NCBI GenBank assembly: GCA_015064545.1 | Contig: SVSA01000003.1 | Coordinates: forward strand, 1-49,126 | Direction of reading: 5' to 3' | Length of the DNA: 49,126 bases | Source: Oscillospiraceae bacterium | GTDB taxonomy: Bacteria > Bacillota > Clostridia > Oscillospirales > CAG-272 | Shown here: positions 153 through 16,340 of the stretch, piece by piece | Numbering within the stretch: the first letter of the stretch is position 1 | How the letters are laid out: every line of letters starts with the position of its first letter | Position numbers and translations under genes: made by a program | Notes under the pieces: model-generated | Database searches by the model: none | What the model was told of the DNA's origin: nothing | The model's input: only the letters and a program-made list of their open reading frames with translations

Positions 153-1406
153 TTACTTGCGCTTCTTGGCAACCACGGCAGTGCCGAGAATACCGATCAC
201 AGCAACGAGTGCTACGACAGAGAGTACATCGCCCTGAGGAGGAACGACAACGTCATCGGTGGATACTTCGGGAGCCTGAGTTTCGGGAGCAGGAGCCAAT
301 GTGCTGTGAATGTCAGCGAGCTTTTCGGCAACCGACCAGTTCAAGCTGTAACCGGTACCATAATCAGTACCGTCGGCCTTAAAGTGAACACGGTTGGGGA
401 AAGCGTGGGTGTCGGGCAAGCCAAGATCGAAACCGTCCAGAATCATCTCGAGCTTAGTGCCATCCTGTGCCTCAACAGTTCCGAAGAGGCGAACATCAAG
501 GTTAGCAACATTGTTCGCAGGATAGAAGCCGTTGACGATGTTAACTTCGTTGAAGTAGGAGTTTGAACCATCCTTAGCGGCGGCAAGGTAAGCGGAGTTG
601 GTGAAGCGCCAAACATAGTCGTTGACAACCTCAATAACATCGGAAACATTGTAAGCCCAGTTGGAGTAAGTCCAGTTACCGGTGACGGCAATCTTAACGT
701 CAGCTGCAGGAGCCTTCATCGGCTTGTTGAAGACAACGTAAACATACTCGTGCTCCCAACCGTCGGCGGTCTCATTTTCTTTAGGAGAGAAGGCAACAGC
801 AGTAAGAGGATTAAGGCTAGGAACAGGAATAGCATCCACAGAAGCGGCGGTGCCCTTGAGGAGCTTATAGCCATGACGGGCATCACCGTTCAGAGCGTCG
901 TTCAGAAGATCTTTGGTGGTATCAAGGGCAAGGGTTTCGGAACCATCGGCGGTCGTAACCGTACCGATCAGTGCATAGTAGAAAATAGCATCGATGCCAA
1001 CATTGGTCTTGAAGTGATTCTTTTCGCCAGCTGCACAGTTGGTCAAAAACCAGCTACCGGCTGCACCCTCAGAGGGGGTATTGATATCAAACTTCCAAAC
1101 CTGATCGGAAACAGCGGTAACAAAGGGCTTATCCATGCGGCGAGTGTAGCGCCAGTTTTCAGTAGGCTTGGATTCGTCGGTCGGCCAAGCGTAACCAACG
1201 AGGGAAAGAGCAACACCGTCTTCAGCAACAGGGGCCTTAACCTTCTTGTTGAATACAACATAAGCGTATCCGGGATCGTTATCTACTGTGTAGAAAGCGG
1301 CGGAGAGGGGAGCGGAAGTGCTGGCAGCCGAAGCACTGACAGCAAACATAGCCATCATGCCGACCAGCATGGTGAGTGCGAGGAATACGGAAAAAATCTT
1401 TTTCAT
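153..1406 (-). CDS. Secreted surface protein with two tandem copies of an uncharacterised beta-rich domain and a C-terminal VVPPQGD-TM-KKRK anchor
   Basis: Signal peptide MKKIFSVFLALTMLVGMMAMFAVSASA. Internal repeat YAYVVFNKKVKAP...GTVTTADG / YVYVVFNKPMKAP...GTVEAQDG. C-terminus APETQAP..VVPPQGD-hydrophobic-KKRK. RBS AGGAG upstream. Confidence 0.85.
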   Translation of the reverse strand: MKKIFSVFLALTMLVGMMAMFAVSASAASTSAPLSAAFYTVDNDPGYAYVVFNKKVKAPVAEDGVALSLVGYAWPTDESKPTENWRYTRRMDKPFVTAVSDQVWKFDINTPSEGAAGSWFLTNCAAGEKNHFKTNVGIDAIFYYALIGTVTTADGSETLALDTTKDLLNDALNGDARHGYKLLKGTAASVDAIPVPSLNPLTAVAFSPKENETADGWEHEYVYVVFNKPMKAPAADVKIAVTGNWTYSNWAYNVSDVIEVVNDYVWRFTNSAYLAAAKDGSNSYFNEVNIVNGFYPANNVANLDVRLFGTVEAQDGTKLEMILDGFDLGLPDTHAFPNRVHFKADGTDYGTGYSLNWSVAEKLADIHSTLAPAPETQAPEVSTDDVVVPPQGDVLSVVALVAVIGILGTAVVAKKRK

Positions 1407-1593
1407 ATTCTTTCTCCTTAATATAAATTTGATACCATGATTGGCGTGACATGAAAACGCGAGGCGAATTTCGATACGTCTGCCAATCGGTTATTATCAT
1501 TATAACAAAGGAACAGGTTCAAAACAATGTCACATTTTTACGTGCAAAGGACAAAATTTGTCTTTTGAACAATTTGTGGACAAAAAATGTGCC

Positions 1594-1632
1594 AAAAAAA
1601 AGACACGGAGTGTGCGCAGGGCACACTCCGTG
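1594..1632 (-). terminator. Rho-independent terminator after 1641..2513
   Basis: 12-bp stem cacggagtgtgc/gcacactccgtg, followed on the minus strand by a U-tract. Confidence 0.85.
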
Positions 1633-1640
1633 AAAGCGGA

Positions 1641-2513
1641 TTATTTCTTTTTCTTGGCAACAACAACGACAACGATGACAACGACGACGACAACAGCGGC
1701 GACGATGCCGATGATGAGGCCGAGGCTGCTGTCTGCGGCCGGCTTTTCAGCGGGATCGGTCGTAGGAGCGTTGGTGGTGGCTGCGGGCTCGGTATCGGGA
1801 GCGTCGGTCGTGCCGGGCTGCTGAGTAGCCGGAGGCTCGGTGGCGGGGGGCACAGTGGCAGGGGGCTCGGTATCGGGCTTATCGGGAATGAATTCGTAAA
1901 CCGAACCAACGGTCAGAACCGCAAAGGTGGAGTTGTCCTTATCGGTCTTGATGATCATGTGACCGGGCTGGGTGGTCATACCATTGGGATCGTCAACGGC
2001 GAGCTCATACTCAAAAGCCTGAACGCCATTAGCGGTGGTCAGCGGATCGCCGAGAAGAGCGTAGTACCAGTAGCCACCATGAGGATCAACGGCGATGGGA
2101 CCCTCGGCATTGATGTTCAGACCGCCGAGACCCCACGGAATGTGGTCCATGGAGGGAGCGCCGTTCTGCATATTGGCAAACTTCATGACCTTGCCGCTTT
2201 CACCAACCATGCCCTGGTAGGTGTATTCAACGCGGGAAATGTCGCGAATGGTTTCGGGGTGATCGTCGCCCTCTGTAGGCCAACCCAGTGCGCAAAGCGA
2301 GAAGATGACGGTGGCCTCCTCAGCAGGCTCGGACATCGGCTCGTCGAACAGCAGGTAGACATAGGGATCGTTGGCAACCGAGTAGATTCTTACGCCTACA
2401 TCGGCGGTAACAACCTCTTCGTCGGTGCCTTCGGCCGAAGCGCTGACAGCAAACAGAGCCGTCATGCCGACCAGAAGCGAGAGTGCGAGGAACAGTGTAA
2501 GAAGTTTCTTCAT
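1641..2513 (-). CDS. Secreted, C-terminally membrane-anchored protein; paralogue of 153..1406 with one domain copy
   Basis: Signal peptide very similar to 153..1406. Shared motifs IYSVANDPYVYLLFDEPM, GWPT, YYALLG..TTANG. Pro/Thr linker, then SSLGLIIGIVAAVVVVVVIVVVVVAKKKK. Confidence 0.85.
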   Translation of the reverse strand: MKKLLTLFLALSLLVGMTALFAVSASAEGTDEEVVTADVGVRIYSVANDPYVYLLFDEPMSEPAEEATVIFSLCALGWPTEGDDHPETIRDISRVEYTYQGMVGESGKVMKFANMQNGAPSMDHIPWGLGGLNINAEGPIAVDPHGGYWYYALLGDPLTTANGVQAFEYELAVDDPNGMTTQPGHMIIKTDKDNSTFAVLTVGSVYEFIPDKPDTEPPATVPPATEPPATQQPGTTDAPDTEPAATTNAPTTDPAEKPAADSSLGLIIGIVAAVVVVVVIVVVVVAKKKK

Positions 2514-2756
2514 ATTCGTTCTCCTTTGGAATCAGGGGAGGGAAATCCCCTTGTAATTACATTCATTTTAACAAAAAAAACGGGTGAAGACAATGACGTT
2601 TTTTTACCTGCCGTGGACGGATTCTGCTCTCTTTGAAGTTGTCGGGGTGGGGAACAAGGCTTGATGGCTTGGGATGGCCGAAAAAGGGACTGAACGGCGG
2701 TTTTTGCCCGGGTTTTAACGAAGATTTCATGAATCGGAACATATCTTTGTCAATTG

Positions 2757-2822
2757 CCTACTCATGTAACATTTTTTTGTTAGTTTTGACAGGCACAAAA
2801 GTCAAAATGTTACATGAGTAGG
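2757..2822. promoter_or_regulatory. Perfect 19-bp inverted repeat (candidate operator) just upstream of the catabolic operon promoter
   Basis: cctactcatgtaacatttt (2757-2775) and aaaatgttacatgagtagg (2804-2822). Confidence 0.6.
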
Positions 2823-2835
2823 TAAAAAAATACCA

Positions 2836-2864
2836 TTGACAAATGGGGGGTAAAACAGTATAAT
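2836..2864 (+). promoter_or_regulatory. Sigma-A promoter of the 3025..10750 operon
   Basis: TTGACA (2836-2841), 17 bp spacer, TATAAT (2859-2864). Confidence 0.85.
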
Positions 2865-3024
2865 AAATTATGGAAAATTAAGAAAAATATAAGCCCGTCT
2901 TTCCTTGTCTACCGTAACGGAAAACGCTTGTATGTCAGTGCCGTTTCGCTATGGTCGAAGCGGCATTCCGTGTTTTTACGGAACATGTTAATTTGTGAAC
3001 TTTATTAAAGGAGATATAAATTTT

Positions 3025-4392
3025 ATGGAAGCAAAAGTGTTTGTTGGTGAACTGATTGCCAAGGCCAGAAAGGCGCAGCAGGCGTACGAGTCCTTCACGC
3101 AGGAGCAAGCGGATGCGATTGTCCGCGCTTGCGCCAAGGCCGTCTACGATAATGCCGAATATCTCGCGCGTCTTGCCGTTGACGAGACCCGCATGGGTGT
3201 GTACGAGCATAAGATTCAGAAGAACCTCGGTAAATCCAAGGTCATCTGGAACGACCTGAAGACCAAGAAATCGGTTGGCATTCTCAGCCGTAATGAGGAG
3301 ACCGGTATCACCGAGATCGCCCGTCCTGTCGGTGTGGTAGCCGCGATCACGCCCTGCACCAATCCGGTTGTTACTCCCATGTGTAATGCCATGTTTGCGC
3401 TCAAGGGCTTGAATGCGATTATCGTCGGCCCGCATCCCCGTTCCAAGAAGGTTTCCACCGAAACCGTCCGTCTGATGAACGAGGCAATTGCGAAGCTGGG
3501 CGCTCCCGAAAACTTGATTCAGATTATCGAAGAGCCCTCGGTCGAGCTGTCGGCAGAGCTGATGAAGGCGGCCGATGTGGTCGTAGCAACCGGCGGTATG
3601 CCGATGGTTCGCTCGGCATATTCCAGCGGTAAGCCCGCTTACGGCGTCGGTGCCGGTAACGTACAGTGTATCTTTGACCGCGGTATCGACTACGCCAAGG
3701 AGGTTCCGATGGCTGTAGAGGGCCGTGCCTTTGATAACGGTATCATCTGCTCGGGTGAGCAGACCGCTATCATTGCCGAGGAAGATTACGAGACGGTTAT
3801 TGCCGAGTTCGTCAAGGCCGGCTGCTTCTATATCGACGATGAAGCTACGGTTACCAAGCTGACCGAAACCATCTTCCCCGATGGCGTGATGAATAAGAAC
3901 CTTGTCGGTGTTTCGGCGCTCAAGATTGCCGAGGCGGCCGGTATCGAGGTGCCGGAGGGTACCCGTGTCCTGCTCGTCAAGGCACCCGGCTACGGTAAGG
4001 GCTTCCTTCTCTCCAAGGAGAAGATGTGCCCCGTCATCTCGACCTATACCTACAAGACCTTCGAGGAGGCTGTGGCAATCGCACAGGCAAACCTCGATGT
4101 CGAAGGACGCGGTCACAGCGTTTCGCTTCATTCGTATAATAAGGAACACATTGAGTACGCCGGTGAGCGCCTGACGGTTTCCCGCGTACTGATCAATCAG
4201 ATTTGCTCGACCATGAACGGCGGTAGCCTCTTCAACGGTCTGACTCCCACAACGACGCTCGGCTGTGCTTCGTGGGGTAATAACAGCATCTCGGAAAACT
4301 TCTCCTATAAGTTCCTCCTCAATGTCATTCGCGTTGCCTACCGTCTGCCCGACGCCAAGGCTCCCACGGACGAGGAAATTTGGGCGGAGTAA
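3025..4392 (+). CDS. CoA-acylating aldehyde dehydrogenase, succinate-semialdehyde dehydrogenase (succinyl-CoA reductase)-like
   Basis: Motifs TPCTNPVVTPMCNAM, ATGG, FDNGIICSGEQ (catalytic Cys), KEKMCP, TTTLGCASWGNNSISEN. Closely resembles my recollection of the Clostridium kluyveri succinyl-CoA reductase. ATG 3025 follows AAGGAG. Confidence 0.9.
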   Translation: MEAKVFVGELIAKARKAQQAYESFTQEQADAIVRACAKAVYDNAEYLARLAVDETRMGVYEHKIQKNLGKSKVIWNDLKTKKSVGILSRNEETGITEIARPVGVVAAITPCTNPVVTPMCNAMFALKGLNAIIVGPHPRSKKVSTETVRLMNEAIAKLGAPENLIQIIEEPSVELSAELMKAADVVVATGGMPMVRSAYSSGKPAYGVGAGNVQCIFDRGIDYAKEVPMAVEGRAFDNGIICSGEQTAIIAEEDYETVIAEFVKAGCFYIDDEATVTKLTETIFPDGVMNKNLVGVSALKIAEAAGIEVPEGTRVLLVKAPGYGKGFLLSKEKMCPVISTYTYKTFEEAVAIAQANLDVEGRGHSVSLHSYNKEHIEYAGERLTVSRVLINQICSTMNGGSLFNGLTPTTTLGCASWGNNSISENFSYKFLLNVIRVAYRLPDAKAPTDEEIWAE

Positions 4393-4416
4393 TCGTCATT
4401 GTTCAATGTCGCTAAC

Positions 4417-4450
4417 ATCCGCCCGCGCCCGGAAACGGGCACGGGCGGAT
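4417..4450 (+). other. GC-rich intergenic hairpin with GAAA tetraloop and no U-tract
   Basis: atccgcccgcgcccg-gaaa-cgggcacgggcggat between the first two genes of the operon. Confidence 0.6.
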
Positions 4451-4493
4451 CGTGGCGCAAACGATACACTTTGAAAGGAAAAGGAACGAATTC

Positions 4494-5645
4494 ATGGATT
4501 TAATGGAATACAGAGCCCAAGGGTTGTTTGCCAAATTCGGCGTTCCCTGCAATGCAGGTGTTGTCGTGGACAGCCTGGAGGAGCTTGAGGCGAAACAGGA
4601 CGAGCTCCGTTATCCGCTCGTGATTAAGGCTCAGGTCAAGATCGGCGGACGAGGCAAGGCCGGCGGTATCAAGTTCGCCGATAATTTTGAGGAGGCTAAG
4701 GCAGCTGCCGAGGCCATTCTCGGCATGAACATCAAGGGGCATATCGTTAAAAAGCTTATGCTGGTCGAAAAGAAGGAGATTGCTCGCGAGTTCTATCTGT
4801 CTGTTATGCTCGACCGCGGCACAAAGTGTCCCGTTTTCATCTTCTCGCCCGAGGGCGGTATGGATATCGAGACGCTCGCCAAGGAGCAGCCCGAAAAAAT
4901 CTTCAAGACGGTGGTTACACCCGGCTTCGGAGCCAAAGATTATATCGCAAATTATTTTGCCGCCAAGGCCGGCTTAGATAAGGCACAGACCAAGGAGCTT
5001 GCGGTGGTGATCAAGAATCTTTACAAGCTCTTCTGTGACTATCATTGTCTTCTTTGCGAAATCAATCCGCTTGTTCTGGATCCTAACGGACACATTATGG
5101 CTCTCGACGGTAAGGTGTCGATCGACGACAGCGCTGTCGTTAAGCTTCCTGACATTGCTGCGCCCGAGGCAGGCGAGAACATTGAACCCCTTGTGAAAGA
5201 GGCTGCGGATTTCAACTTCCTGTATATCCCCTGCGATCCCGAGGGCGATGTTGCTGTTGTTTCGAACGGATCGGGCATGATCATGTCCTGCATCGATCAC
5301 ATTGCCAAGCACGGCTATAAGGTTCGTGCCTCGCTGGATCTCGGCGGCGGTGCGACGGCCGACCGTATTAAAGAGGCGGTTCGCATTATTCTTGCCGATC
5401 CTAAGATTGATACGCTGTTTATCAATATTTTCGGCGGTATTACCCGTTGCTCCGAGGTTGCGCTTGGCATCAAGGGTGCCATTGAGGAGTATGGTATTAC
5501 CTCGCCGATCATTGTCCGCTTTGAGGGCACCAACAAGGAGATTGCGCTTGAGACGATCAAGCCGCTGACCACGGTTATCTATGCCGACGGTCTGATCTCC
5601 GGCGTCGAAGAGCTCTGCAAGCTGAAAGAGGGAGGAAATCACTGA
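4494..5645 (+). CDS. sucC: Succinyl-CoA synthetase (ADP-forming acyl-CoA ligase) beta subunit family
   Basis: KAQVKIGGRGKAGG, ATP-grasp EINPL, LDLGGGA, NIFGGITRC. Starts MDLMEY. Confidence 0.88.
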   Translation: MDLMEYRAQGLFAKFGVPCNAGVVVDSLEELEAKQDELRYPLVIKAQVKIGGRGKAGGIKFADNFEEAKAAAEAILGMNIKGHIVKKLMLVEKKEIAREFYLSVMLDRGTKCPVFIFSPEGGMDIETLAKEQPEKIFKTVVTPGFGAKDYIANYFAAKAGLDKAQTKELAVVIKNLYKLFCDYHCLLCEINPLVLDPNGHIMALDGKVSIDDSAVVKLPDIAAPEAGENIEPLVKEAADFNFLYIPCDPEGDVAVVSNGSGMIMSCIDHIAKHGYKVRASLDLGGGATADRIKEAVRIILADPKIDTLFINIFGGITRCSEVALGIKGAIEEYGITSPIIVRFEGTNKEIALETIKPLTTVIYADGLISGVEELCKLKEGGNH

Positions 5646-6517
5646 TGAGTATTCTTGTTGATGAAAATACCCGGTTAATCATCCAGGGTATCACGGGCCG
5701 AGAGGGTACCTTCCACTGCGAGCAGATGCTGCAGTACGGTACGAACGTGGTAGCCGGTGTCACCCCCGGTAAGGGCGGCCAGGAGGTTCTCGGCGTTCCG
5801 GTATTCAATACGGTAAGAGAAGCGGTTGAGGCTACCGGTGCCAATGCCTCGGTTATCTTTGTGCCCGCCATGCACACGGCTGCCGGCGTTTACGAGGCGC
5901 TGGATGCCGGCATCAAGACGATTATGACCATTGCCGAGCATGTGCCGGTTCACGATATGATGGGTGTGTATCACGCTGCCCGAATGAAGGGTGCTCGCGT
6001 GATCGGACCGAACTCCTTCGGTGTTATTTCCCCCGGCAAGTCCAAGGCAGGCTTCATGGCACATCGCATTTTTAAGCCCGGTCATGTCGGTCTGATGTCC
6101 CGTTCGGCTACCAACTGCTACGAAACGGTCTTCATGATGTCCAATGCCGGTATCGGTCAGTCGACCTGTGTCGGTGTCGGCGGTGATATGATTCCCGGCT
6201 CCACCTTTACCGATATCCTGCCCCTCTTTGAGGCAGATCCTGAGACGAAGGCGATCGTTATGATCGGCGAAATCGGCGGAAACGAAGAGGAACTGGCGGC
6301 TGAGTACATTAAGAATCATGTGACCAAGCCGGTGATCGCCCTGATTGCCGGTAAGAATGCCCCGAAGGGCAAGAGCATGGGACACGCCGGTGCGATCGTA
6401 TCGGCTGACGGTACCGGCAGTGCCGAGAACAAGGAAAAAGCGCTTCGTGCCGCCGGTGTTCATATTGCCGAAACCACAACGCATATCGTTGATATCCTGA
6501 AATCGTTAAATCTTTGA
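5645..6517 (+). CDS. sucD: Succinyl-CoA synthetase (ADP-forming acyl-CoA ligase) alpha subunit family
   Basis: [24 protein letters not shown] and phospho-His motif MGHAGA. Translationally coupled to the beta subunit. Confidence 0.9.
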
Positions 6518-6534
6518 TACGGAGGCAACATAAT

Positions 6535-7500
6535 ATGGAAAATCAGCAGTTACTCGATATTTATTTTATGATGCATAAGATCCGTAAGTTTGAGGAAAAG
6601 GCTCTTCATCTGTTTGAAGCCAACAAGCTGCGCGGATCGGTTCACCTTTGCATCGGCCAGGAGGCTACGCCTGCTACCGTGTGCTCCCTTTTGAACGAGG
6701 ATGATTATATCACCAGTACCCACCGCGGACATGGACACTGCATTGCCAAGGGTGCCGATGTACGCTATGCACTCGCTGAGCTGATGGGAAGATCCACCGG
6801 TTACTGCAAGGGCCGTGGCGGCTCCATGCATATTGCCGATTTTACCAAGGGTAATCTCGGTGCCAACGCGATTGTCGGCGGCGGTATTCCGATTGCTGTC
6901 GGTGCTGCTCTCGCGTCCAAGATGCAGAATGAGGGCAAGGTTGCCATTTCCTTCTTCGGCGACTCGGCCTCGAACGAAGGTACCTTCCACGAATCGCTGA
7001 ACCTGGCTTCTGTCTGGAAGCTCCCTGTGGTTTTTGTTTGCGAAAACAATCTGTACGGTATCTCGGTTCCCTCGTGGCAGAGCACCTCGGTAAAGGATAT
7101 TGCCGTGCGCGGCGAGGGCTACAATATGCCGTATGTTGTTGTTGACGGTAACAAGCCCGATGAAATTGAAAAGGCGGCTCGCGCCGCCATTGAACGCGCT
7201 CGTGCCGGCGAAGGCCCGACGCTGATTGAATGCAAGACCTACCGTTGGCTTGGTCACTGGACCGGCGACCCGACACCTTACCGTACCAAGGAAGAGGTTG
7301 AGGAATGGAAGAAGAAATGTCCGATTGCCTACACCAGAAAGCTGCTTGAGGAGCAGGGCGTTGCTCCTGCCGATCTGGATGCTCTGGAAGCCAAGGCGCA
7401 GGCATTGGTCGATGAAGCCGAAACCTTTGCGTTGAACAGTCCCGAGCCCGATCCCGCACAGGTTCTTGAAGATGTATTCTACGACGGGGGTGACAACTGA
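6535..7500 (+). CDS. ThDP-dependent dehydrogenase E1 alpha subunit (acetoin/pyruvate dehydrogenase-like)
   Basis: HLCIGQEA, STHRGHGH, GRGGSMH, ThDP motif GDSASNEG...ENN, TYRWLGH. RBS GGAGG. Confidence 0.9.
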   Translation: MENQQLLDIYFMMHKIRKFEEKALHLFEANKLRGSVHLCIGQEATPATVCSLLNEDDYITSTHRGHGHCIAKGADVRYALAELMGRSTGYCKGRGGSMHIADFTKGNLGANAIVGGGIPIAVGAALASKMQNEGKVAISFFGDSASNEGTFHESLNLASVWKLPVVFVCENNLYGISVPSWQSTSVKDIAVRGEGYNMPYVVVDGNKPDEIEKAARAAIERARAGEGPTLIECKTYRWLGHWTGDPTPYRTKEEVEEWKKKCPIAYTRKLLEEQGVAPADLDALEAKAQALVDEAETFALNSPEPDPAQVLEDVFYDGGDN

Positions 7501-8483
7501 TGATTAAGAGTTATGCACAGGCGATCAAGGATGTGACCGCCGAAGAAATGAGACGTGACGAAAAGGTATTCGTCATGGGTGAGGACGTAGAGGTTCTTGG
7601 CGGTATCTTCGGATGCACCAGAGGTCTGGCCGACGAATTCGGTGTCGACCGTGTCCGCAATACGCCGATTTCCGAAGCCGGCTTTGTCGGCGCCGGCTTG
7701 GGTGCTGCTTGTTGCGGTATGAGACCGGTTGTTGAGCTGATGTATATGGACTTTGCCCTTGTTGCGCTCGATCAGATCGTGAATCAGGTGGCCAAGACCC
7801 GTTATATTTTCGGTGGTAAGGCCAGAATTCCGCTGGTGATTCGCGGCCAGCAGGGTGTCGGCCGCGGCAACGCCGCCACGCACTCGCAAAGCCTTGAGGT
7901 GCTGTTTACCCATTTCCCCGGCCTGAAGGTTGCGATGCCTTCGACTCCCGAGGATGCGGCCGGACTTCTCCGTACCGCCATCCGCGACGATAACCCTGTT
8001 GTCTTTATCGAGCATAAGGCACTGTATGTGAACAAAGGCCAGGTGCCGGATGATCCCAATTTCATGATTCCCTTTGGTAAGGCCAAGGTGGTACGCGAAG
8101 GTACCGACTGTACTGTTATTGCCACACATACCTATGTGCAAAAGGCAGTTGATATGGCCGAAAAGCTCTGGAAGGAGGAGGGTATCTCGGTTGAGGTAAT
8201 TGATCCCCGTACCCTCGTGCCCTTCGATAAGGAAACCGTGCTGAATTCGGTTAAGAAGACCGGCCGCGCCGTGGTTGTCCATGAAGCACATCGTGTTTGC
8301 GGTATCGGTGCTGAGATCGCTTCGGTTATCCAGGAGGAGGCCTTCCCGTACCTGGATGCTCCGGTGATTCGCTTGGGCGCTAAGCAGTGTCCGTTGCCCT
8401 TCAACCTCGGCTTGGAGAACGCGGTTGTTCCTCAGCCGCAGGATATCTATGACGCCGTTAAGAAGGCGCTCTGGTTGAAATAA
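7500..8483 (+). CDS. ThDP-dependent dehydrogenase E1 beta subunit
   Basis: GEDV, NTPISEAG, ATHSQS, FIEHK, IDPRTLVP. Confidence 0.9.
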   Translation: MIKSYAQAIKDVTAEEMRRDEKVFVMGEDVEVLGGIFGCTRGLADEFGVDRVRNTPISEAGFVGAGLGAACCGMRPVVELMYMDFALVALDQIVNQVAKTRYIFGGKARIPLVIRGQQGVGRGNAATHSQSLEVLFTHFPGLKVAMPSTPEDAAGLLRTAIRDDNPVVFIEHKALYVNKGQVPDDPNFMIPFGKAKVVREGTDCTVIATHTYVQKAVDMAEKLWKEEGISVEVIDPRTLVPFDKETVLNSVKKTGRAVVVHEAHRVCGIGAEIASVIQEEAFPYLDAPVIRLGAKQCPLPFNLGLENAVVPQPQDIYDAVKKALWLK

Positions 8484-8555
8484 AGGATTTGATTACCGGC
8501 CCCTGTCTGCACAAAGCGGACAGGGTTGCCGACATTATGAAAGGAATGGTATTCC

Positions 8556-9488
8556 ATGGCAAATATTGTAATTATGCCGAAGCAGGGCCTTCAGATGACC
8601 GAAGGCTTGATTACCAAATGGCTTAAGGCGGTCGGTGACACGGTTGCCGAGGGTGAGCCTCTCTTTGAAATGGAGACCGATAAGCTGACGATTACTATCG
8701 ATTCTTCGTTTAGCGGTACACTGTTAAAGATTGTCCGTGAGGAAGGGGAAGAGGTGCCGATTACCGAACCGATTGCCGTCATCGGTGATGCCGGTGAGGA
8801 TATCAGTCAGTTGGATCTCGGTGTCGCGGTTAAGACCGAGGACGCACCGGCTCCCGAGACTGAAGCGCCCGCTCCGATTGCCGCTCCCGCAGCGCCGGTT
8901 GCACCGGTTGCTCCTGCCGTGACCGCACCGGTTCCTGCCGCACTGCCCAAGGCTCCCGGTGAGCGTGTTTTCATCACGCCTCGTGCCAGAATGCGCTGTG
9001 CTGAACGCGGCATCGCGGATTATACGAAGATTCCCGGCACCGGCGATAACGGTTTGATTGTTGAGCGTGATGTGTTGGCCTACAAGATTCCCGCTCCGGC
9101 TGCCGCTGATTGCAGCCGTATTACGATTCGTGTAAACATGGCTGCTGTCGAGGACTATCTGAAGGCGGCCGCCGAGGGTGGTTTGGCCTTGACTTCGGCT
9201 GACCTTGTGGCCAAGGCTGCCGTTGCTGCCGCTAAAAAGTATGAGGCTTTTGCCGATCTTCCGGTGAAGGCCTTGAAGGGCTCGGATGTAGAGGAATATT
9301 TCCCGTCGCTTCCTGCTGAGACGAATGCGCTTCTGTCAGCCGGCGGGATCTATACCGACGGTTCGTGCCGTAAGACTGTTCTCTCGATTGCCTTCTGTGA
9401 AGAGCACGTTGAGGCGGATGAGGCTGCGGCTTTCCTGTCTCGCGTGAAGGTGCTTTTGGAGAATCCGCTCCTGATGCTGGCAATATGA
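8556..9488 (+). CDS. E2-like lipoyl-carrier protein with a shortened, degenerate acyltransferase domain
   Basis: Lipoyl domain (METDK), Ala/Pro linker, E3-binding domain (TPRAR..GTGDNGLIVERDV). The C-terminal LSIAFCEEHVEADEAAAFLSRVKVLLENP aligns with the E2 C-terminus but lacks DHRxxDG. Confidence 0.8.
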   Translation: MANIVIMPKQGLQMTEGLITKWLKAVGDTVAEGEPLFEMETDKLTITIDSSFSGTLLKIVREEGEEVPITEPIAVIGDAGEDISQLDLGVAVKTEDAPAPETEAPAPIAAPAAPVAPVAPAVTAPVPAALPKAPGERVFITPRARMRCAERGIADYTKIPGTGDNGLIVERDVLAYKIPAPAAADCSRITIRVNMAAVEDYLKAAAEGGLALTSADLVAKAAVAAAKKYEAFADLPVKALKGSDVEEYFPSLPAETNALLSAGGIYTDGSCRKTVLSIAFCEEHVEADEAAAFLSRVKVLLENPLLMLAI

Positions 9489-10750
9489 TGATGACGAAGG
9501 AACTCAAGTATGGTCGTGGCTATGCGACCGTAGCCTTTGATGAGAAGCATTTGCTTGCTGAGCTGATGCCCAATCCTGTTGAGGTGGGACTAACCGGTGT
9601 TGATGAGGTGAAGCGCTCGCTTGCCGCGCCGATTGGCAGCGAAAAGCTTTCGGTTTTGGCAAAAGGGAAGAAGAACGTGGTTATCATTACCAGTGATATC
9701 ACGCGTCCGGTTCCCAGCTATAAAATTCTTCCATCACTTTTGGACGAGCTGAGTGAGGCGGGTGTGGCCGATGACTGCATTACCGTTGTCTTTGCTCTTG
9801 GCAGTCACCGCGGTCATACCGAGGAGGAAAAGCGCCATCTGGTTGGCGATGCGGTTTATGATCGCGTGAAGTGCATCGATGCCGACGGAACCGATTGTAT
9901 CCGTATGGGTGTGACCAAGGCGGGAACCCCTGTCGATATCTTCCGCAAGGTGGCCGAGGCCGATTTCAAGATTTGTGTCGGTAATGTTGAATTCCACTAT
10001 TTCGCCGGCTACAGCGGCGGTGCCAAGGCAATCATGCCGGGCGTTTCCACCCGTGAGGCCATTCAGTGTAACCATCGTATGATGGTACAGCGCGAGGCTT
10101 GCGCCGGTCATCTTGACGGTAATCCGATTCGCGAGGATATCGAGGAAGCGGGACGGTTGACCGGTATTGATTTCATTTGCAATGTCGTTCTCGATGCCAA
10201 GAAAGAGATTATCAAGGCGGTATCGGGGGATGCGGTGAAGGCTCACCGTGAGGGCTGTGCTTTCCTCGATACGCTCTATAAGGCTTATATTCCGAAAAAG
10301 GCAGATATCGTTATAGTATCTGCCGGCGGATTCCCCAAGGATATGAATATGTACCAAGCGCAAAAGGCGCTGGATAATGCCAAGCACGCCGTCCGTGACG
10401 GCGGTACGGTCATTTGGCTTGCCGAATGCACGGAGGGCTTGGGCGAGCATACCTTTGAGGAATGGATGACCGGACACGAAAAGAGCTCGGATATGATTGA
10501 TCATCTCCACCGTGAATTCAAGCTCGGCGGTCATAAGGCGGCTGCGATTGCGCTTGTGCTGCAGCAGGCCAAGGTCGTTCTGGTCAGCCATTTTGACGAC
10601 GAATTTGTCCGTTCGGTGCATCTGACGCCTGCCCATACTGCCCAAGAAGCACTCGACGAGGCTCTGCAGACCTATGGCCCCGATGCCTCAATCATCCTGA
10701 TGCCGATCGGCGGCTCGACATTGCCTGCCGTGAAGGCCGTCGAACAATAA
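9485..10750 (+). CDS. larA: Nickel-pincer (NPN)-dependent lactate racemase family (LarA-like) 2-hydroxyacid racemase/epimerase
   Basis: SDITRP, ALGSHR, HYFAGYSGGAKAIMPG, GGFPKD..YQAQK. Substrate not determinable. Confidence 0.88.
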   Translation: MMMTKELKYGRGYATVAFDEKHLLAELMPNPVEVGLTGVDEVKRSLAAPIGSEKLSVLAKGKKNVVIITSDITRPVPSYKILPSLLDELSEAGVADDCITVVFALGSHRGHTEEEKRHLVGDAVYDRVKCIDADGTDCIRMGVTKAGTPVDIFRKVAEADFKICVGNVEFHYFAGYSGGAKAIMPGVSTREAIQCNHRMMVQREACAGHLDGNPIREDIEEAGRLTGIDFICNVVLDAKKEIIKAVSGDAVKAHREGCAFLDTLYKAYIPKKADIVIVSAGGFPKDMNMYQAQKALDNAKHAVRDGGTVIWLAECTEGLGEHTFEEWMTGHEKSSDMIDHLHREFKLGGHKAAAIALVLQQAKVVLVSHFDDEFVRSVHLTPAHTAQEALDEALQTYGPDASIILMPIGGSTLPAVKAVEQ

Positions 10751-10795
10751 ACGGTTATGAGGTAGCGATTGTTGCCATAATTATCGTTCTCTCCC

Positions 10796-10825
10796 ATCCC
10801 CCGGCATTATGAAATGCCGGGGGAT
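10796..10825 (+). terminator. Hairpin after the larA-like gene
   Basis: atcccccggcatt-atga-aatgccgggggat; weak U-tract. Confidence 0.6.
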
Positions 10826-10843
10826 ATTGTATTCGAGGGAAAG

Positions 10844-10878
10844 AAAAACCTTGAAGCGATTATCGCTTCAAGGTTTTT
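10844..10878. terminator. Bidirectional terminator between convergent genes
   Basis: aaaaaccttgaagcgat-t-atcgcttcaaggttttt. Confidence 0.85.
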
Positions 10879-10890
10879 TGGTAAAAGATA

Positions 10891-11658
10891 TTATTTTCTT
10901 GTAAAAATGTAGCTTTTGAAGAGACGCTTGTCCGCGATCGCGCGAATTTTTGCGATTGAGATCGAATCGGGCGTGATTTTTATGGCAGAAAGTCCGGGAG
11001 AACCGGGAATGACAGTAACATCGACCTTGAATGTGAATATATCGCTGTATTTTTGCACAAAGTAAGTACCGACCATCGCCACGTCCTGCGGCGTTTGAAG
11101 ATCGCCCAGTTCATAATCTTCGTAGCGATATACGGCGTAGCAATAATCGGTTGAGCTGAAGAGGGCAATTCCCTCAAAGCCTACTACAAAGCTTTGGGCA
11201 TTGGACAAATCTTCGTGCAACTGTTGAAAGAGAGGGAGTTCTCCGATAACAGCGGCGGAATTTTCTCTTGCTAACGTTTTTTCCAATACGATCTTTCCGA
11301 CCAAGGGCCCGATGGCTAAAGTGACGAGGTAAGCAATCAGATTGATCAATAAAACGCCGATCCTGCCGCCGAACAGCGAGGTGAAAAGCAATAAAAAGGT
11401 GTAGGTTAACGCAAAACCTCCGATAAAAAGGCCAGCAGCGCCGATCAGCGTTTTCATTTTACTGAGGATAGAGCTTTTGATCGTGATTCCCCAGATTATT
11501 CCGGAATATGCGGATGTAAACAGTAAGTAAGAAAAACCAATCAGAAATCCACCGATTGCGCAGATGAGGAGTGAAGGAATATTGTTGAGACAGTTATAGC
11601 GGAATCCGCCTAAGGCGGCACCGCCGATAATAAGTAAAGAGCCGAGTTTTTGCTTCAT
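10891..11658 (-). CDS. Hypothetical membrane protein (about 4 N-terminal TM helices plus a soluble C-terminal domain)
   Basis: Four hydrophobic segments. ATG 11658 follows GGAGG. Visibly more AT-rich than the flanking genes. Confidence 0.75.
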   Translation of the reverse strand: MKQKLGSLLIIGGAALGGFRYNCLNNIPSLLICAIGGFLIGFSYLLFTSAYSGIIWGITIKSSILSKMKTLIGAAGLFIGGFALTYTFLLLFTSLFGGRIGVLLINLIAYLVTLAIGPLVGKIVLEKTLARENSAAVIGELPLFQQLHEDLSNAQSFVVGFEGIALFSSTDYCYAVYRYEDYELGDLQTPQDVAMVGTYFVQKYSDIFTFKVDVTVIPGSPGLSAIKITPDSISIAKIRAIADKRLFKSYIFTRK

Positions 11659-11691
11659 AGTCAGGTATCCTCCCAAAAATTAATTATCTAC

Positions 11692-11729
11692 ATTATACTG
11701 CATTTTGCGGTATTTGTCAATACCGCAAA
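11692..11729 (-). promoter_or_regulatory. Sigma-A promoter of 10891..11658 overlapped by an 11-bp inverted repeat (candidate operator)
   Basis: Minus-strand TTGACA (11720-11715), 17 bp, TATAAT (11697-11692). Inverted repeat tttgcggtatt-tgtc-aataccgcaaa at 11704-11729. Confidence 0.75.
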
Positions 11730-11769
11730 GCGCGGTAAGGTATAATATTTTTGAAAGAGGGTGATGTTC

Positions 11770-11982
11770 ATGTTTCGAAGAATTCGAGACCTCAGAGAAG
11801 ACCATGATATGACACAGAAGCAGGTCGCACAAAAGCTGAACTGTTCTCAGCAGGTGTACAGTAATTATGAATTGGGCCAGCGGGATATTCCAACGGATAT
11901 TTTAATAAAGCTCTCGTTTTTGTATCACGTTTCTACCGATTATATTTTAGAAATCAGCAATAACCCAAAGATACAAAAATAA
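11770..11982 (+). CDS. XRE-family helix-turn-helix transcriptional regulator
   Basis: RIRDLREDHDMTQKQVAQKLNCSQQVYSNYELGQRDIP...VSTDYIL. Alternative starts at 11761 and 11764. Confidence 0.88.
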   Translation: MFRRIRDLREDHDMTQKQVAQKLNCSQQVYSNYELGQRDIPTDILIKLSFLYHVSTDYILEISNNPKIQK

Positions 11983-12008
11983 GCCGTGATTTAATCACGG
12001 CTTATTTT
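11976..12008. terminator. Bidirectional terminator
   Basis: aaaataagccgtgatt-t-aatcacggcttatttt between convergent genes. Confidence 0.85.
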
Positions 12009-12046
12009 AATGCTTATAAGCAATTGTTTCGAGAAACCGTATTCGA

Positions 12047-12808
12047 TCAGCGCATCAGCATACCGCCGGTGACGTCGATGGTAGCACCGGTGATATACGA
12101 GGCGGGCTCGGAGGCAAGGAAGGTGATGACATTGGCAACATCCTTGGCAGTCGAGATGCGACCGAGCGGGATGCGCTCCAAATACTGATCCTCGCGCTCG
12201 GCGAGCGCCTTTTCGTTCATCTGGGTGCGCATCATACCGGGGGCAACGCAGGTACAGTTGATGCCGTACTTGGCAACCTCGCGGGCCAGCGAAACATTAA
12301 AGGTAACAAGACCGCCCTTGGAGGCAGCATAGTGAGCGTGACCGGAGGTTGAGCCGTGGAAGGCTGCCTGCGAAACCGTTGTGATGATACGGCCCTTGAT
12401 GCCCTTGGCGATCATGTGCTTGACTACGCGCTGCGTGACAAAGAAGGTGCCGTTCAAATCGATGGCAACACATTTTTCCCACTGAGCATCGGTCATTTCC
12501 TCAACATAAGCGGTCGGCCAGATGCCGGCGCAGTTGACAAGAATATCGATCTGTCCGAGCTCGGCGATGGTTTTATTTACCATAGCCTCATCATCCTCGG
12601 GCTTCGAAATATCGGCGTAGACGGCAAAGCACTTAACACCATAGGTGTCGGCAATATGCTTGGCAAAGGCGATGGATTCCTCTTCCTTTACCACATAGTT
12701 CAGGGCGAGACTGACGCCTTCGGCGGCAAGCAGCTCAGCGGTTGCGGCACCGAGGCCGGTGGTTCCGCCGGTAATCAGACAGGTTTTACCCTTTAAGCCA
12801 AGTTCCAT
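12047..12808 (-). CDS. Short-chain dehydrogenase/reductase (FabG-like SDR)
   Basis: TGGTTGLG, VNCAG, YAASK, ITGATIDVTGG. Confidence 0.9.
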   Translation of the reverse strand: MELGLKGKTCLITGGTTGLGAATAELLAAEGVSLALNYVVKEEESIAFAKHIADTYGVKCFAVYADISKPEDDEAMVNKTIAELGQIDILVNCAGIWPTAYVEEMTDAQWEKCVAIDLNGTFFVTQRVVKHMIAKGIKGRIITTVSQAAFHGSTSGHAHYAASKGGLVTFNVSLAREVAKYGINCTCVAPGMMRTQMNEKALAEREDQYLERIPLGRISTAKDVANVITFLASEPASYITGATIDVTGGMLMR

Positions 12809-13851
12809 ACATCGTTCCTCCAGCAGTCCTTATTGATCACATAAGCGGGAACGGCACCCCCCCAAGCCTTGACAAACTCACGGGTGAGCTTGACGGGGGA
12901 GAGAAGGAAGGCGTCGTTGGAGCCGCCGGCCATGTGAGGCGTGATCGTGACATTCGGCAGCGTAACAAGCGGATGGTCCTTTCCGGGCGGCTCAAGCTCA
13001 AAGACATCGAGCATGGCGCCGGCAATCTTTCCGCTTGCCAATGCCTCGTGCAGGGCATCCTCATCCACCAGACCGGCGCGAGAGGTGTTGATCAGATAGG
13101 CGGTAGGCTTCATCAGCGCGAGCATATCGGCATTGATGAGATGACGGTTGCTTTCGGTCAAACGCGCGTGGAGCGACACAAAATCACTCTTAGCCATCAG
13201 CTCGGGCAGATCTACCATCGTGACACCCTCGGGTGGGTTCTTGCAATAAGGATCGTACACGAGAATGTTCATGTCGAAGCCGGACAGGCGGCGTGCCACC
13301 TTGCGTCCGATCTCACCGATACCGATCAGGCCGACGGTCTTGCCGGGCAGATCGGGGATGATACCCGAATTCGGGTAGGTACGGATCCACTCGCCGTTCT
13401 TAAGTCCGAGATGGCCGCGCGCGATATTTCTGGCCTCGCAGATCATGGCACCGACTGTGAAGTCGGCCACCGAATCGGCGTTACGGCCGGGCGTGTTCAT
13501 GACGGCAATACCCTTTTCGGTGCAGTAGGCCATATTTACGTTTTCATAGCCGCCGCGGAAGACGCCGACAACCTTGAGGTTGGGGCAGCGGTCGATAACC
13601 TTTTTGTTGATGGGGCAGAACTGTGTGAAAACTATATCGGCATCGCCGATGGCTTCGATAATATAATCCGGTACCTCATAGGCCTCTGCGCCGTTTTGCT
13701 CAATCAGAAGATTGATGTTCTGCAAGCCCTGAAACCCGTCGGTTTCCCAATCGATGATGGTGACGTCTACGCCAAGCGCCTCAAGCGGCTTGACGCCGCT
13801 GGCAATGTATTCGCCGGGAATAAAAAGATCGCCGATTCCTACCAGTTTCAT
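12793..13851 (-). CDS. D-isomer-specific 2-hydroxyacid dehydrogenase (SerA/YoaD-like)
   Basis: TPGRNADSVA, GIGEIG, INTSRAG, LDVFELEP, TPHMAG. Confidence 0.9.
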   Translation of the reverse strand: MKLVGIGDLFIPGEYIASGVKPLEALGVDVTIIDWETDGFQGLQNINLLIEQNGAEAYEVPDYIIEAIGDADIVFTQFCPINKKVIDRCPNLKVVGVFRGGYENVNMAYCTEKGIAVMNTPGRNADSVADFTVGAMICEARNIARGHLGLKNGEWIRTYPNSGIIPDLPGKTVGLIGIGEIGRKVARRLSGFDMNILVYDPYCKNPPEGVTMVDLPELMAKSDFVSLHARLTESNRHLINADMLALMKPTAYLINTSRAGLVDEDALHEALASGKIAGAMLDVFELEPPGKDHPLVTLPNVTITPHMAGGSNDAFLLSPVKLTREFVKAWGGAVPAYVINKDCWRNDVWNLA

Positions 13852-14729
13852 GCTCTTCCGTTGCTCCCAAAGACGCGAATCTTATTGCGGATGACTTCCT
13901 TCATCTGCTTCATAGCATCCTCATAAACGAAGCAGGGCCACATCGAGAGGTTCTGAATGGTATTCAGCTTGTTTTTCAAGCCGGTATTGAGCGCGTTAAG
14001 AACCTCGGAGTAGACATTGATCTTGGTGATACCGCGCGCAATGGCACCGCGGATTTCCTCGTCGGGCGTGCCGCTTCCGCCGTGAAGCACGAGCGGAATG
14101 GGCGAATCGGTATTGATGCGGTCAAGCAGGTCCAGCTTAAGCTTAGGAGCCTTGACATAAACCCCGTGCGAGGTGCCGACCGCAACGGCAAGGCAGTCAA
14201 CGTCGGTGCGAGCCACAAATTCTACCACGTCGGAAGGCTTTGTGAAGTTTTCTTCGATTTCCGCGTCGGTGCTGGCGGTGACGAGCGTTTGGTTATTACC
14301 GGCAATGGCATCGCCGACATGACCGAGCTCGGCCTCTACGGTAACACCGTGTGCATGGGCATAGGCGACGACCTCGCGGGTATTGGCGGCGTTCTGGTCA
14401 AAGGGAAGCTTGGAGCCGTCGTACATGACCGAGGAAAAGCCGGCTTCTACCGCACGGATGATGTTTTTCATTTCGGTTGCATGGTCGAGATGCAGACAGA
14501 AGGGAACGTGGTATTCCTGCGAGGCGCGCAGGGCAATATCGCGCATGAAATAGAGGCCGGTGCCGTCCAAATCGGGCTGAAGCCCCATCAGAAGAGCCGG
14601 TGATTTCTCCTCGGCGCATACCTCAGCAACACAGCGGATCATTTCGTAGTTGCTGACGTCAAATGCCGGAATGGCGTAATGATTCTTACGGGCATCAGCC
14701 AGCATTTCCTTTAAAGTAACAAAACTCAT
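13848..14729 (-). CDS. Class II ketose-bisphosphate aldolase (FBA/GatY family)
   Basis: LHLDH, SVMYDGS, EAELGHVG, VGTSHG, LHGGSG, KINV. Confidence 0.9.
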   Translation of the reverse strand: MSFVTLKEMLADARKNHYAIPAFDVSNYEMIRCVAEVCAEEKSPALLMGLQPDLDGTGLYFMRDIALRASQEYHVPFCLHLDHATEMKNIIRAVEAGFSSVMYDGSKLPFDQNAANTREVVAYAHAHGVTVEAELGHVGDAIAGNNQTLVTASTDAEIEENFTKPSDVVEFVARTDVDCLAVAVGTSHGVYVKAPKLKLDLLDRINTDSPIPLVLHGGSGTPDEEIRGAIARGITKINVYSEVLNALNTGLKNKLNTIQNLSMWPCFVYEDAMKQMKEVIRNKIRVFGSNGRA

Positions 14730-14756
14730 TTTCTTTTTCCTTTTCCTTTTCCTTTC

Positions 14757-16232: not shown

Positions 16233-16262
16233 GAGCTCCTCCTGTTCTTTCGTTCTGTGTCT

Positions 16263-16340
16263 ATTATAACGCAAATAAAAACATTTGTCAATAACAAATG
16301 TAAATTTCCTATTGACAATCGATAGATATTGTTGTATAAT
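16263..16340. promoter_or_regulatory. Back-to-back divergent sigma-A promoters with a palindromic operator
   Basis: Minus strand: TTGACA 16291-16286, 17 bp, TATAAT 16268-16263. Plus strand: TTGACA 16312-16317, 17 bp, TATAAT 16335-16340. Inverted repeat acatttgt-caata-acaaatgt at 16281-16301. Confidence 0.85.

Follow-up and report, generated by a model that had tools for sequence, protein, structure and literature searches.

The seven-gene operon and its enzymes

The window analysed here is a stretch of 49,126 nucleotides (contig SVSA01000003.1, assembly GCA_015064545.1) from the metagenome-assembled genome (MAG) of an Oscillospiraceae bacterium. Seven tightly packed open reading frames (ORFs) lie on its plus strand between one promoter and one terminator, the whole spanning 2836–10825 according to the ORF listing and the family scans. 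They encode, in order, a coenzyme A (CoA)-acylating aldehyde dehydrogenase (ALDH), the beta and alpha subunits of an ADP-forming acid-CoA ligase (SucC and SucD), the alpha and beta subunits of a thiamine diphosphate (ThDP)-dependent E1, a short E2 and a LarA-type racemase. Four of the gene junctions overlap or abut, and the remaining two are gaps of ~60–100 nt and 72 nt. The seven genes form a single operon. Neither an E3 nor a lipoate/biotin ligase was found among the 41 window ORFs (14 + 27) that were scanned against Pfam. A preliminary description of this DNA, made without database searches, had reported one promoter, seven co-oriented genes with the identities listed above, and no E3 or lipoate ligase in the window; the ORF listing, the Pfam and family scans and the promoter search agree with it on all of these points.

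The ALDH gene (3025–4392, plus strand) starts with an ATG preceded by AGGAG. The best solved relative of its product is the succinyl-CoA reductase SucD of Clostridium kluyveri (PDB code: 8cei), which aligns over the full length (residues 3–453) with 539 bits, whereas AdhE-type and acetaldehyde dehydrogenases score 302–337 bits (337 for AdhE). The alignment is ungapped at IICSGEQ, where the catalytic cysteine is kept, and at K66/K70 in EHKIQKNLGKS. Equivalents of Lys70 and Ser243 of the reductase are also kept. In the reductase they bind the carboxylate at the far end of the acyl group, and the corresponding residues of the short-chain enzyme PduP are hydrophobic (PMC10249356). The substrate of the window ALDH should therefore bear a second carboxylate or a similar anion. 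By these alignments the protein is a SucD-type CoA-acylating enzyme and not a generic acetaldehyde dehydrogenase, and the earlier suggestion of a succinic-semialdehyde-like aldehyde is a reasonable one.

The ligase beta subunit, SucC-like, is encoded at 4452–5645 on the plus strand. Its family matches begin at residue 15, and the start is probably near 4494. It passes PRK00696 (385 bits, cut-off 370) and misses TIGR01016 (360.7 bits, cut-off 375.55), and its best solved relative is the beta subunit of succinyl-CoA synthetase (SCS), with 279 bits. The CoA-binding alpha subunit, SucD-like, follows at 5645–6517 on the same strand and passes TIGR01019 (391 bits, cut-off 353). The first assignment of the ALDH and ligase as a pair that would convert an aldehyde to an acyl-CoA and then to acid plus ATP holds with the SucD-type ALDH identified here.

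The ThDP-dependent E1 alpha (6514–7500, plus strand; E1_dh 282 bits) falls below both equivalog cut-offs for pyruvate dehydrogenase (PDH), with 351.7 against 393.85 for TIGR03182 and 242.1 against 411.35 for TIGR03181. Among solved structures it is closest to human PDH E1 alpha (205 bits). E1 beta (7500–8483, plus strand) passes a subfamily model only, NF006667 (378 bits, cut-off 321). Together these matches place the E1 in the heterotetrameric lineage that covers acetoin dehydrogenases and eukaryote-type PDH. Among the operons that share the short E2, E1 beta is 87–92% identical and is the most conserved gene.

The last gene, LarA (9485–10750, plus strand), overlaps the short E2 gene by an ATGA, which couples the two in translation. 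Its product scores 467 bits against the solved malate racemase Mar2 (PDB code: 6d6z) and 233 bits against lactate racemase, and it passes the family model NF052593 with 575 bits (cut-off 500). It shares active-site and cofactor-binding motifs with Mar2, the SDITRP, GSHRGH, EFHY..GYSGG.K, NH and YQAQKALDNA stretches being conserved in the alignment of the two. By family membership it is a Mar2-type (LarAH6) malate racemase with a presumed nickel-pincer cofactor, in place of the enzyme supplying an enantiomer of an unspecified 2-hydroxyacid precursor that had been envisaged at first. Of the cofactor-synthesis genes, larC, larE and a true larB were found in none of seven gut or rumen carriers, namely the source MAG (82% complete), five genomes of its clade (G001–G005) and a near-complete Christensenellaceae genome (G008). 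A search for these genes had been proposed in the preliminary description, and it came back empty in the source MAG and in the six other carriers. All three are present in Clostridium magnum and Desulfosporosinus, in two to three sets each, and LarC occurs in 13 of 40 genomes that bear a LarA near an E1 cluster. Cofactor salvage or an undiscovered cofactor-making route is possible in the carriers that have no larBCE.

The short E2, the hub locus and the homologous operons

The short E2 (8556–9488, plus strand) has 310 residues and matches the Pfam domains Biotin_lipoyl and E3_binding. The lipoyl domain (63.9 bits) carries a METDK motif whose Lys43 is invariant in all 18 aligned relatives. It is followed by a disordered linker and by a peripheral-subunit-binding domain (PSBD) for E3 or E1 (32.6 bits, residues 138–174), in which T141, P142, R143, A144, R147 and R151 are invariant in the family alignment. 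The Pfam scan gave no match to the E2 catalytic domain, PF00198. That domain has ~230 residues with the histidine of the DHRxxDG motif when complete, and ~130 residues are left here, matching fragments of it. Compared with full E2s, ~100 core residues are gone, including the substrate loops. The DHRxxDG position reads FCEEHVEA, no histidine is conserved across the family, and the relatives match only positions 148–230 of the PF00198 model.

A protein search recovered relatives of 288–336 residues that are 39–79% identical over the full length; the family comprises at least 15 distinct proteins with open frames. Variants of 407–420 residues carry a duplicated lipoyl domain. Throughout the family the lipoyl and binding domains hardly vary, and the C-terminal part is more variable, always with a conserved LLENP-LLMLA-like tail at its end. 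The near invariance of the lipoyl lysine and of the E3-binding domain is an argument for continued lipoamide chemistry. The protein had first been called a degenerate E2, which is right in that its catalytic core is gone, with neither a PF00198 match nor the histidine, but simple decay does not describe a protein whose two other domains are so well kept. The same conservation speaks against the original proposal that the ALDH has assumed the roles of E2 and E3.

The C-terminal region, residues 185–310, is predicted by AlphaFold2 with pLDDT ~90. The model superimposes on E2 catalytic cores with Z scores of 14–16 and a root-mean-square deviation of ~1.9 Å over 130 residues. It also matches the human E3-binding protein (E3BP; PDB code: 6h60), with Z 13.5 over 127 residues, and the reduced core-binding domain of fungal protein X (8ohs_C), with Z 8.8 over 92 of 120 residues. 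The predicted architecture, a lipoyl domain and a PSBD followed by a catalytically dead remnant of the E2 core, thus resembles that of E3BP/protein X. By sequence, relatives of the remnant domain form three clusters among 1.84 billion representatives, and the remnant-domain family is young and narrow.

A complete E2 and E3 lie elsewhere in the source genome. Contig C84 of the MAG carries a DeoR regulator, a full-length E2 of 429 residues, an E3 of 453 residues (TIGR01350, 472 bits) and the start of an E1, inside which the contig ends. The corresponding locus is complete in a clade genome (G003), where DeoR, E2 and E3 are followed by a fused E1 alpha-beta of 828 residues. We refer to this E2-E3 pair as the hub. 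Adjacent full-length E2 and E3 genes were found in 5/5 clade genomes and in 3/3 genomes of a second genus with a short E2 (described below), so that all nine short-E2 genomes tested, the source MAG included, have the pair, with one such locus each. The order DeoR-E2-E3-fused E1 was read in three of the nine, namely the source MAG (E1 partial), G003 and, from the second genus, G392. A look for lpd, the E3 gene, elsewhere in the genome had been recommended from the start, and the E3 on C84, beside its full E2, answers it; an E2/E3 encoded elsewhere had been named as evidence against an E3-less pathway, and this is what the source MAG and the eight other short-E2 genomes contain. Lipoate/biotin ligase-family genes were absent from the source MAG and present at two per genome in six relatives; their absence from the MAG is probably due to its incompleteness.

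A complex was modelled from two hub E2 core domains and the C-terminal domain of the short E2. It scored 0.82, against 0.00 for the best control; this mark is reached by 116 of 157 solved complexes and by 2 of 215 mismatched pairs. The docking runs share at least 95% of their contacts, with pLDDT of at least 88 for the short-E2 domain. The predicted contacts are made by the C-terminal tails of both partners and by a helix of each, the last 12 residues of the short E2 falling in the modelled interface, and they resemble the between-trimer contact of E2 cores.

Eighty genome loci were fetched through the E2 alignment and compared by tblastn and clustering, which makes 81 with the window. The same seven genes occur in the same order in 5 of the 80 (L011–L015), with 54–93% protein identity, so the set is not a chance arrangement, and its conservation, which the preliminary description had asked about, is clear. 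ALDH, SucC and SucD stand beside E1 at 33 of the 81 loci and are directly upstream of it in every one. Over all 81 loci, the E2 catalytic domain was found at 71, E3 at 66, LarA at 39 and malic enzyme at 22. The E2 catalytic domain and E3 are both present at 25 of the 33 ALDH-SucCD loci, and many of these also have malic enzyme and a GntR regulator. A Christensenellaceae locus (L029) has the full arrangement: GntR, malic enzyme, ALDH, SucC, SucD, E1 alpha and beta, an E2 of 433 residues, an E3 of 457 residues and LarA. Both are missing at 7 of the 33 (the window, L011–L015 and L018), and L036 keeps the E2 catalytic domain and has no E3 before LarA.

The E1 beta tree includes 47 of the 81 loci; those with a cut or uncalled E1 beta, L015 among them, were left out. 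The window and L011–L014 form a clade with support of 100/99 inside a clade (96/87) that includes loci with full E2 and E3. This nesting of the short-E2 clade among full-E2/E3 loci indicates that the E3-less state is derived. The E2 catalytic core and E3 were trimmed from an ancestral operon that is widespread in anaerobes. The E3-less pathway of the preliminary description accordingly survives in part: the operon indeed has no E3, but it is a derived form whose homologues carry intact E2 and E3 (25/33), which that description had itself named as a ground for refutation, in a genome that, like the other eight, encodes a complete E2-E3 pair at another place.

Among 399 genomes sampled evenly across the class, 15 had a close ALDH homologue. 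ALDH-SucCD-E1 alpha-E1 beta was found in 5 of the other 14 ALDH genomes, and a sixth locus (L119) ends at a contig edge after SucC. A second kind of short E2, of 282 residues, follows ALDH-SucCD-E1 alpha-E1 beta in three of these five genomes, all of one genus (L111, at 6407–7255, L112 and L115). It consists of lipoyl and binding domains only, no E3 is encoded in cis, and a DUF3842 gene comes next. Its C-terminus is unlike that of the window protein, so it looks like a second, independent loss. Elsewhere in this genus, weak PF00198 matches occur in frames of 315–335 residues (L126, L127), which no query matched at a coverage of at least 40%.

A type-II (archaeal-type) phosphorylating glyceraldehyde-3-phosphate dehydrogenase (GAPDH; NF003251, 422 bits, cut-off 185) and/or a phosphoglycerate kinase (PGK) was found at 13 loci. 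None of the 81 loci has both this module and ALDH + SucCD, and in the E1 beta tree loci of the two kinds are intermingled. L032 is the sole uncut locus at which SucCD stands without ALDH. Some loci instead, or additionally, have molybdenum aldehyde oxidoreductase subunits or an aldehyde:ferredoxin-oxidoreductase-like gene. Each of these alternatives turns an aldehyde into an acid by oxidation, which the two paired modules couple to substrate-level phosphorylation. LarA accompanies 20 of the 33 ALDH loci and 10 of the 13 GAPDH/PGK loci, compared with 7 of the 31 loci that have neither. Malic enzyme follows a similar pattern, at 12 ALDH loci, 8 GAPDH/PGK loci, 2 with the aldehyde:ferredoxin-oxidoreductase-like gene and none of the rest. 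In the source MAG a malic enzyme is encoded on contig C98 and is 72% identical to the copy in the L029 operon.

At one further locus, in a complete genome (L114; G346:C1:3010500-3030499, ~4100–13850, minus strand), a TRAP transporter (DctPQM), a SucD-type ALDH, SucC, SucD, LarA, a zinc-dependent alcohol dehydrogenase (Zn-ADH) and GntR stand together with no adjacent E1. The arrangement suggests that an imported hydroxy-carboxylate is oxidised through an aldehyde. Because no E1 is adjacent there, the aldehyde-to-acid module and the racemase form a unit of their own. Some related clusters include a lipoyl synthase gene, and AEC-family transporters occur at L060 and L070.

A candidate route through malate and its alternatives

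We propose that the operon serves an ATP-yielding route from a carboxy-aldehyde through malate to pyruvate, with its E1 working through the borrowed hub E2 and E3 by way of an E3BP-like adaptor; we would give this reading a probability of about one half. The ancestral operon would have held GntR, malic enzyme, the SucD-type ALDH, the SucCD-type ligase, E1 alpha and beta, E2, E3 and the Mar2-type racemase, and the window operon would be its trimmed descendant. The ALDH would act on a C4 carboxy-aldehyde such as a malic or succinic semialdehyde and oxidise it to a CoA thioester, from which the ligase would free the acid with a yield of one ATP. The acid would be a 2-hydroxy-dicarboxylate, most likely D-malate, which the racemase would convert to L-malate, and the malic enzyme on C98 would take L-malate to pyruvate. 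The E1 would still load the lipoyl arm of the short E2, which would act like E3BP/protein X: it would keep the lipoyl arm, the E3/E1-binding domain and the part that docks on the core, with acyl transfer and reoxidation borrowed from the hub E2 and E3. The E1 itself could be placed either late, oxidising the final pyruvate, or early, cleaving an acyloin or a 2-oxoacid. A conversion of malic semialdehyde to D-malate and on to pyruvate has been described for carnitine catabolism in Acinetobacter (PMC11353897).

Several points weigh against this proposal. SucC scores 274 bits against the malate-CoA ligase model (cut-off 604), and a succinate-CoA-ligase-like SucC would fit succinate semialdehyde better, which would leave the racemase without a role. 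Racemase activity in the gut and rumen carriers is only predicted, given that larBCE was not found in them. The domains docked in the complex model are homologous to each other and of a kind whose complexes are solved, so its passing score would show that the docking elements are kept, a likeness rather than binding. The repeated loss of the E2 core and E3, in the window clade, in the genus with the 282-residue protein and at L018, also fits an ALDH that makes them dispensable. The loci were collected by E2 similarity, so that the presence of E1 and E2 at all of them follows from the sampling; the co-occurrence counts take no account of shared ancestry, and contig ends truncate many of the loci. 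The source genome is a MAG of 1.83 Mb and is incomplete, at 82%.

Inositol was considered as a source of the aldehyde, through cleavage of 2-deoxy-5-keto-gluconate by E1, and was rejected for this clade, as IolB was above its cut-off in none of the six clade genomes. IolG-like genes flank two spirochaete loci only.

The mechanism of the preliminary description, which remains the strongest of the alternatives although we consider it unlikely, would make the E1 of this clade a decarboxylase or lyase whose product is a free carboxy-aldehyde: 2-oxoglutarate might yield succinic semialdehyde, for instance, and a hydroxy-oxoglutarate or an acyloin might yield malic semialdehyde. The ALDH would then make the CoA ester and NAD(P)H in place of E2 and E3, and the ligase would make ATP. 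Such a role would suit the position of ALDH and SucCD directly 5' of E1 at 33 of 33 loci and the SucD-like distal-carboxylate residues of the ALDH. It predicts losses of the E2 core and E3 in ALDH operons, and at least two such losses are seen (the window clade and the 282-residue genus), with L036 having lost E3 only. However, the lipoyl lysine and the E3-binding domain are the best conserved parts of the short E2 and lipoyl duplications exist, which is not the pattern of a vestige; the ancestral operons combine ALDH with intact E2 and E3 (25/33); and the hub E2-E3 pair is present in 9/9 short-E2 genomes. In the genome with ALDH-SucCD-LarA beside a Zn-ADH and no adjacent E1, moreover, the aldehyde needs no E1.

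Rather improbable, in our view, is a route in which E1, E2 and E3 work as a 2-oxoacid dehydrogenase that turns 2-oxoglutarate or 4-hydroxy-2-oxoglutarate into succinyl- or malyl-CoA, from which the ligase would make acid and ATP. The ALDH would serve as a redox side valve, and racemase and malic enzyme would finish the conversion of malate. In older literature the oxoglutarate dehydrogenase complex is reported to convert 2-keto-4-hydroxyglutarate to malyl-CoA, a SucD-type ALDH and a SucCD-type ligase suit succinyl-like thioesters, and the linear pathway would have a place for every ancestral gene. The 13 loci with GAPDH + PGK, never with ALDH + SucCD, tell against it: this module could not harvest a CoA ester and points to a free aldehyde. 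ALDH and SucCD are, furthermore, almost always together, and the E1 belongs to the heterotetrameric acetoin/PDH lineage and not to the E1o type.

A plain malate or acetoin fermentation would have malate converted to pyruvate, or acetoin cleaved, with the E1 forming acetyl-CoA, the ALDH acting as an acetaldehyde dehydrogenase and the ligase as an acetate-forming acetyl-CoA synthetase. The E1 lineage does include the acetoin-dehydrogenase type, and C. magnum is among the relatives. Genes for deoxyribose-phosphate aldolase, which releases acetaldehyde, and for Zn-ADH or a short-chain dehydrogenase/reductase (SDR) recur beside the operon, and the AEC-family transporters of L060 and L070 would be in keeping with such a fermentation. 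It is nevertheless distinctly improbable: the ALDH keeps Lys70 and Ser243, the positions that are hydrophobic in PduP (PMC10249356), it is much closer to the reductase SucD (539 bits) than to acetaldehyde dehydrogenases (313–337 bits), and neither the racemase nor the GAPDH/PGK alternative is given a role. That the short E2 is dying and the E1 is on its way out, so that ALDH, ligase and racemase alone matter, is very improbable, for although ~100 core residues and the catalytic histidine are gone and the remnant family is narrow (three clusters among 1.84 billion representatives), the frame is open at similar length in at least 15 distinct proteins, the remnant is predicted to fold at pLDDT ~90, E1 beta is 87–92% identical across the clade, and the short E2 is translationally coupled to LarA.

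The proposed adaptor and malate route can be compared with several known systems. The likeness of the short E2 to eukaryotic E3BP/protein X comprises the same domain order, the fold match (6h60, 8ohs_C) and the predicted docking on a full E2 core. The short E2 differs in being bacterial, in its independent origin from a neighbouring clostridial E2, and in being encoded with its own E1 rather than with the core E2; it would presumably bring a second E1 to a foreign core, and not E3 to its own core. E3BP is not known outside eukaryotes, and the literature search gave no bacterial case among the titles and opening parts of abstracts that it covered. The closest full-length E2 relatives of the short E2 are from Clostridia, including C. 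magnum.

The acetoin dehydrogenase system AcoABCL and the Firmicutes PDH with heterotetrameric E1 have the same gene order of E1 alpha, E1 beta, lipoyl-E2 and E3. The window operon differs from them in having no E2 catalytic domain or E3 in cis and in being joined with ALDH, an SCS-type ligase and a malate racemase. An identification of L072 with the published acetoin system of C. magnum was not confirmed; there are three E1 alpha genes in C. magnum, and the computed masses did not fit the expected values.

C. kluyveri likewise pairs an acylating ALDH, SucD, with an ADP-forming two-subunit ligase, succinyl-CoA synthetase, and the window ALDH matches that SucD at full length with the carboxylate residues kept. 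The direction in the window is probably oxidative, in contrast to C. kluyveri: a reductive succinate-to-butyrate role was rejected, as the 4-hydroxybutyryl-CoA dehydratase (PF11794) was found in none of the six clade genomes. It was found in the one Christensenellaceae genome. In sulfoglycolysis, SqwD and SqwKL are an acylating ALDH and a two-subunit ligase that gain ATP from an aldehyde by substrate-level phosphorylation. The window ALDH differs from SqwD/SauS in falling below the model of the acylating sulfoacetaldehyde dehydrogenase SauS (NF047625; 413 bits, cut-off 600), and no sulfoquinovose genes were noticed in the family scans of the window ORFs.

The carnitine branch of Acinetobacter offers the same logic of a C4 hydroxy-aldehyde acid passing through D-malate to pyruvate (PMC11353897), the aldehyde being a presumed one in the present case. 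According to the same text it uses a non-acylating NAD(P)-dependent ALDH, gains no ATP and ends with a D-specific decarboxylating dehydrogenase. The window would instead use an acylating ALDH with a ligase, gaining ATP, followed by a racemase and an L-malic enzyme. The racemase itself is closest to Mar2 of Thermoanaerobacterium thermosaccharolyticum, with 467 bits and the family model passed. For Mar2 (LarAH6), PMC7583248 reports a genomic association of only 15%, which seems to be with malic enzyme, and does not settle what the racemase does in vivo; the window LarA, in contrast, sits in a conserved operon, and its gut and rumen carriers had no larB, larC or larE that we could find.

Each of these enzyme families is known, and the operon is an undescribed combination in the literature searched. 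Malate racemases thereby gain a conserved pathway context, where their role in vivo had been left open (PMC7583248). A bacterial protein resembling E3BP suggests that several E1s share one E2/E3 core through adaptors, and if such sharing is true, a "missing E2/E3" in the genome of an anaerobe would be read differently. The loci also point to interchangeable modules for aldehyde oxidation with substrate-level phosphorylation, either an acylating ALDH with an SCS-type ligase or an archaeal-type GAPDH with PGK. Since the operon is carried by Clostridia of the gut and rumen, its substrate is probably some widespread compound of plant or host origin.

One may go further and combine a hub-and-satellite lipoamide system in anaerobic Firmicutes, a malic-semialdehyde route via D-malate, and a racemase that works without its own cofactor synthesis; that all three hold together is possible, if doubtful. 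In a hub-and-satellite system, one E2-E3-E1 core would be shared, and satellite operons, each with an E1 and an E3BP-like adaptor, would plug into this foreign core. The combination would also provide the first physiological pathway for the largest LarA group and would imply cofactor salvage or an undiscovered biosynthesis of the nickel-pincer cofactor.

Regulatory signals and neighbouring genes

The promoter of the operon (2836–2864, plus strand) is of the sigma-70 type, TTGACA-17 nt-TATAAT, with 12/12 consensus matches, and its position is kept in the alignment of upstream regions. An inverted repeat with 16-nt arms and the behaviour of a long hairpin (2752–2830, plus strand) lies directly 5' of the -35 box and is a candidate operator. 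Its right arm falls in a partly conserved stretch, with GTCAA 5' of the -35 box in the window, L011–L013 and L015 (5 of 6 aligned upstream regions; columns were marked conserved at 70% or more of the six). The 5' leader also contains a hairpin that resembles a terminator, together with a T run (2937–2967, plus strand); it is specific to the window and absent from five related leaders. No Rfam family reached its gathering score within 2600–3100, and a riboswitch or other known RNA in the leader was rejected on these two grounds. The operon is closed by an intrinsic terminator-like hairpin (10796–10825, plus strand) with a 13-pair stem that includes 8 GC pairs. Contigs from RNA libraries, in two runs of one study (12 and 4 contigs, 95–100% likeness), cover parts of SucC, SucD, E1 alpha, E1 beta, the short E2 and LarA; these contigs possibly include DNA, and transcription is not established by them.

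Three long ORFs, 153–1406 (minus strand), 1587–2636 (plus strand) and 10891–11676 (minus strand), gave no Pfam or NCBIfam match; the last has a 12/12 promoter match on its own strand at 11720–11692. A divergent unit at 12047–17430 has a FGGY kinase, a class II aldolase, a D-2-hydroxyacid dehydrogenase and an SDR on the minus strand and a SorC-family regulator on the plus strand, and is probably a separate tetrose or sugar-acid route. Next, at 17458–27204, are a FAD_oxidored protein of 683 residues, an unassigned ORF of 555 residues and two glycoside hydrolase family 2 (GH2)-like proteins of ~1000 residues. Two large genes of ~850–1250 codons lie just 3' of the operon at L012, L013 and L015.

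Genes for Zn-ADH, SDR, a ribokinase-family kinase and deoxyribose-phosphate aldolase recur beside the operon at other loci, and in the window they are met at 32–35.5 kb. The segment 31531–35553 encodes a metallo-beta-lactamase-fold hydrolase, a Zn-ADH (threonine-dehydrogenase-like, below cut-off), a cupin, a deoxyribose-phosphate aldolase (246 bits, cut-off 117) and a ribokinase-family kinase. Genes of these kinds sit directly upstream of the ALDH operon at L018, L026, L054, L079 and L088. Further downstream, within 37467–39188 and 42747–48241, the window encodes a NifU-like protein with a GGGtGRT-family protein (639 bits), a PAPS-reductase/DUF3440 protein with a ParB-N-like protein, and a MoxR AAA ATPase with a DUF58 protein.

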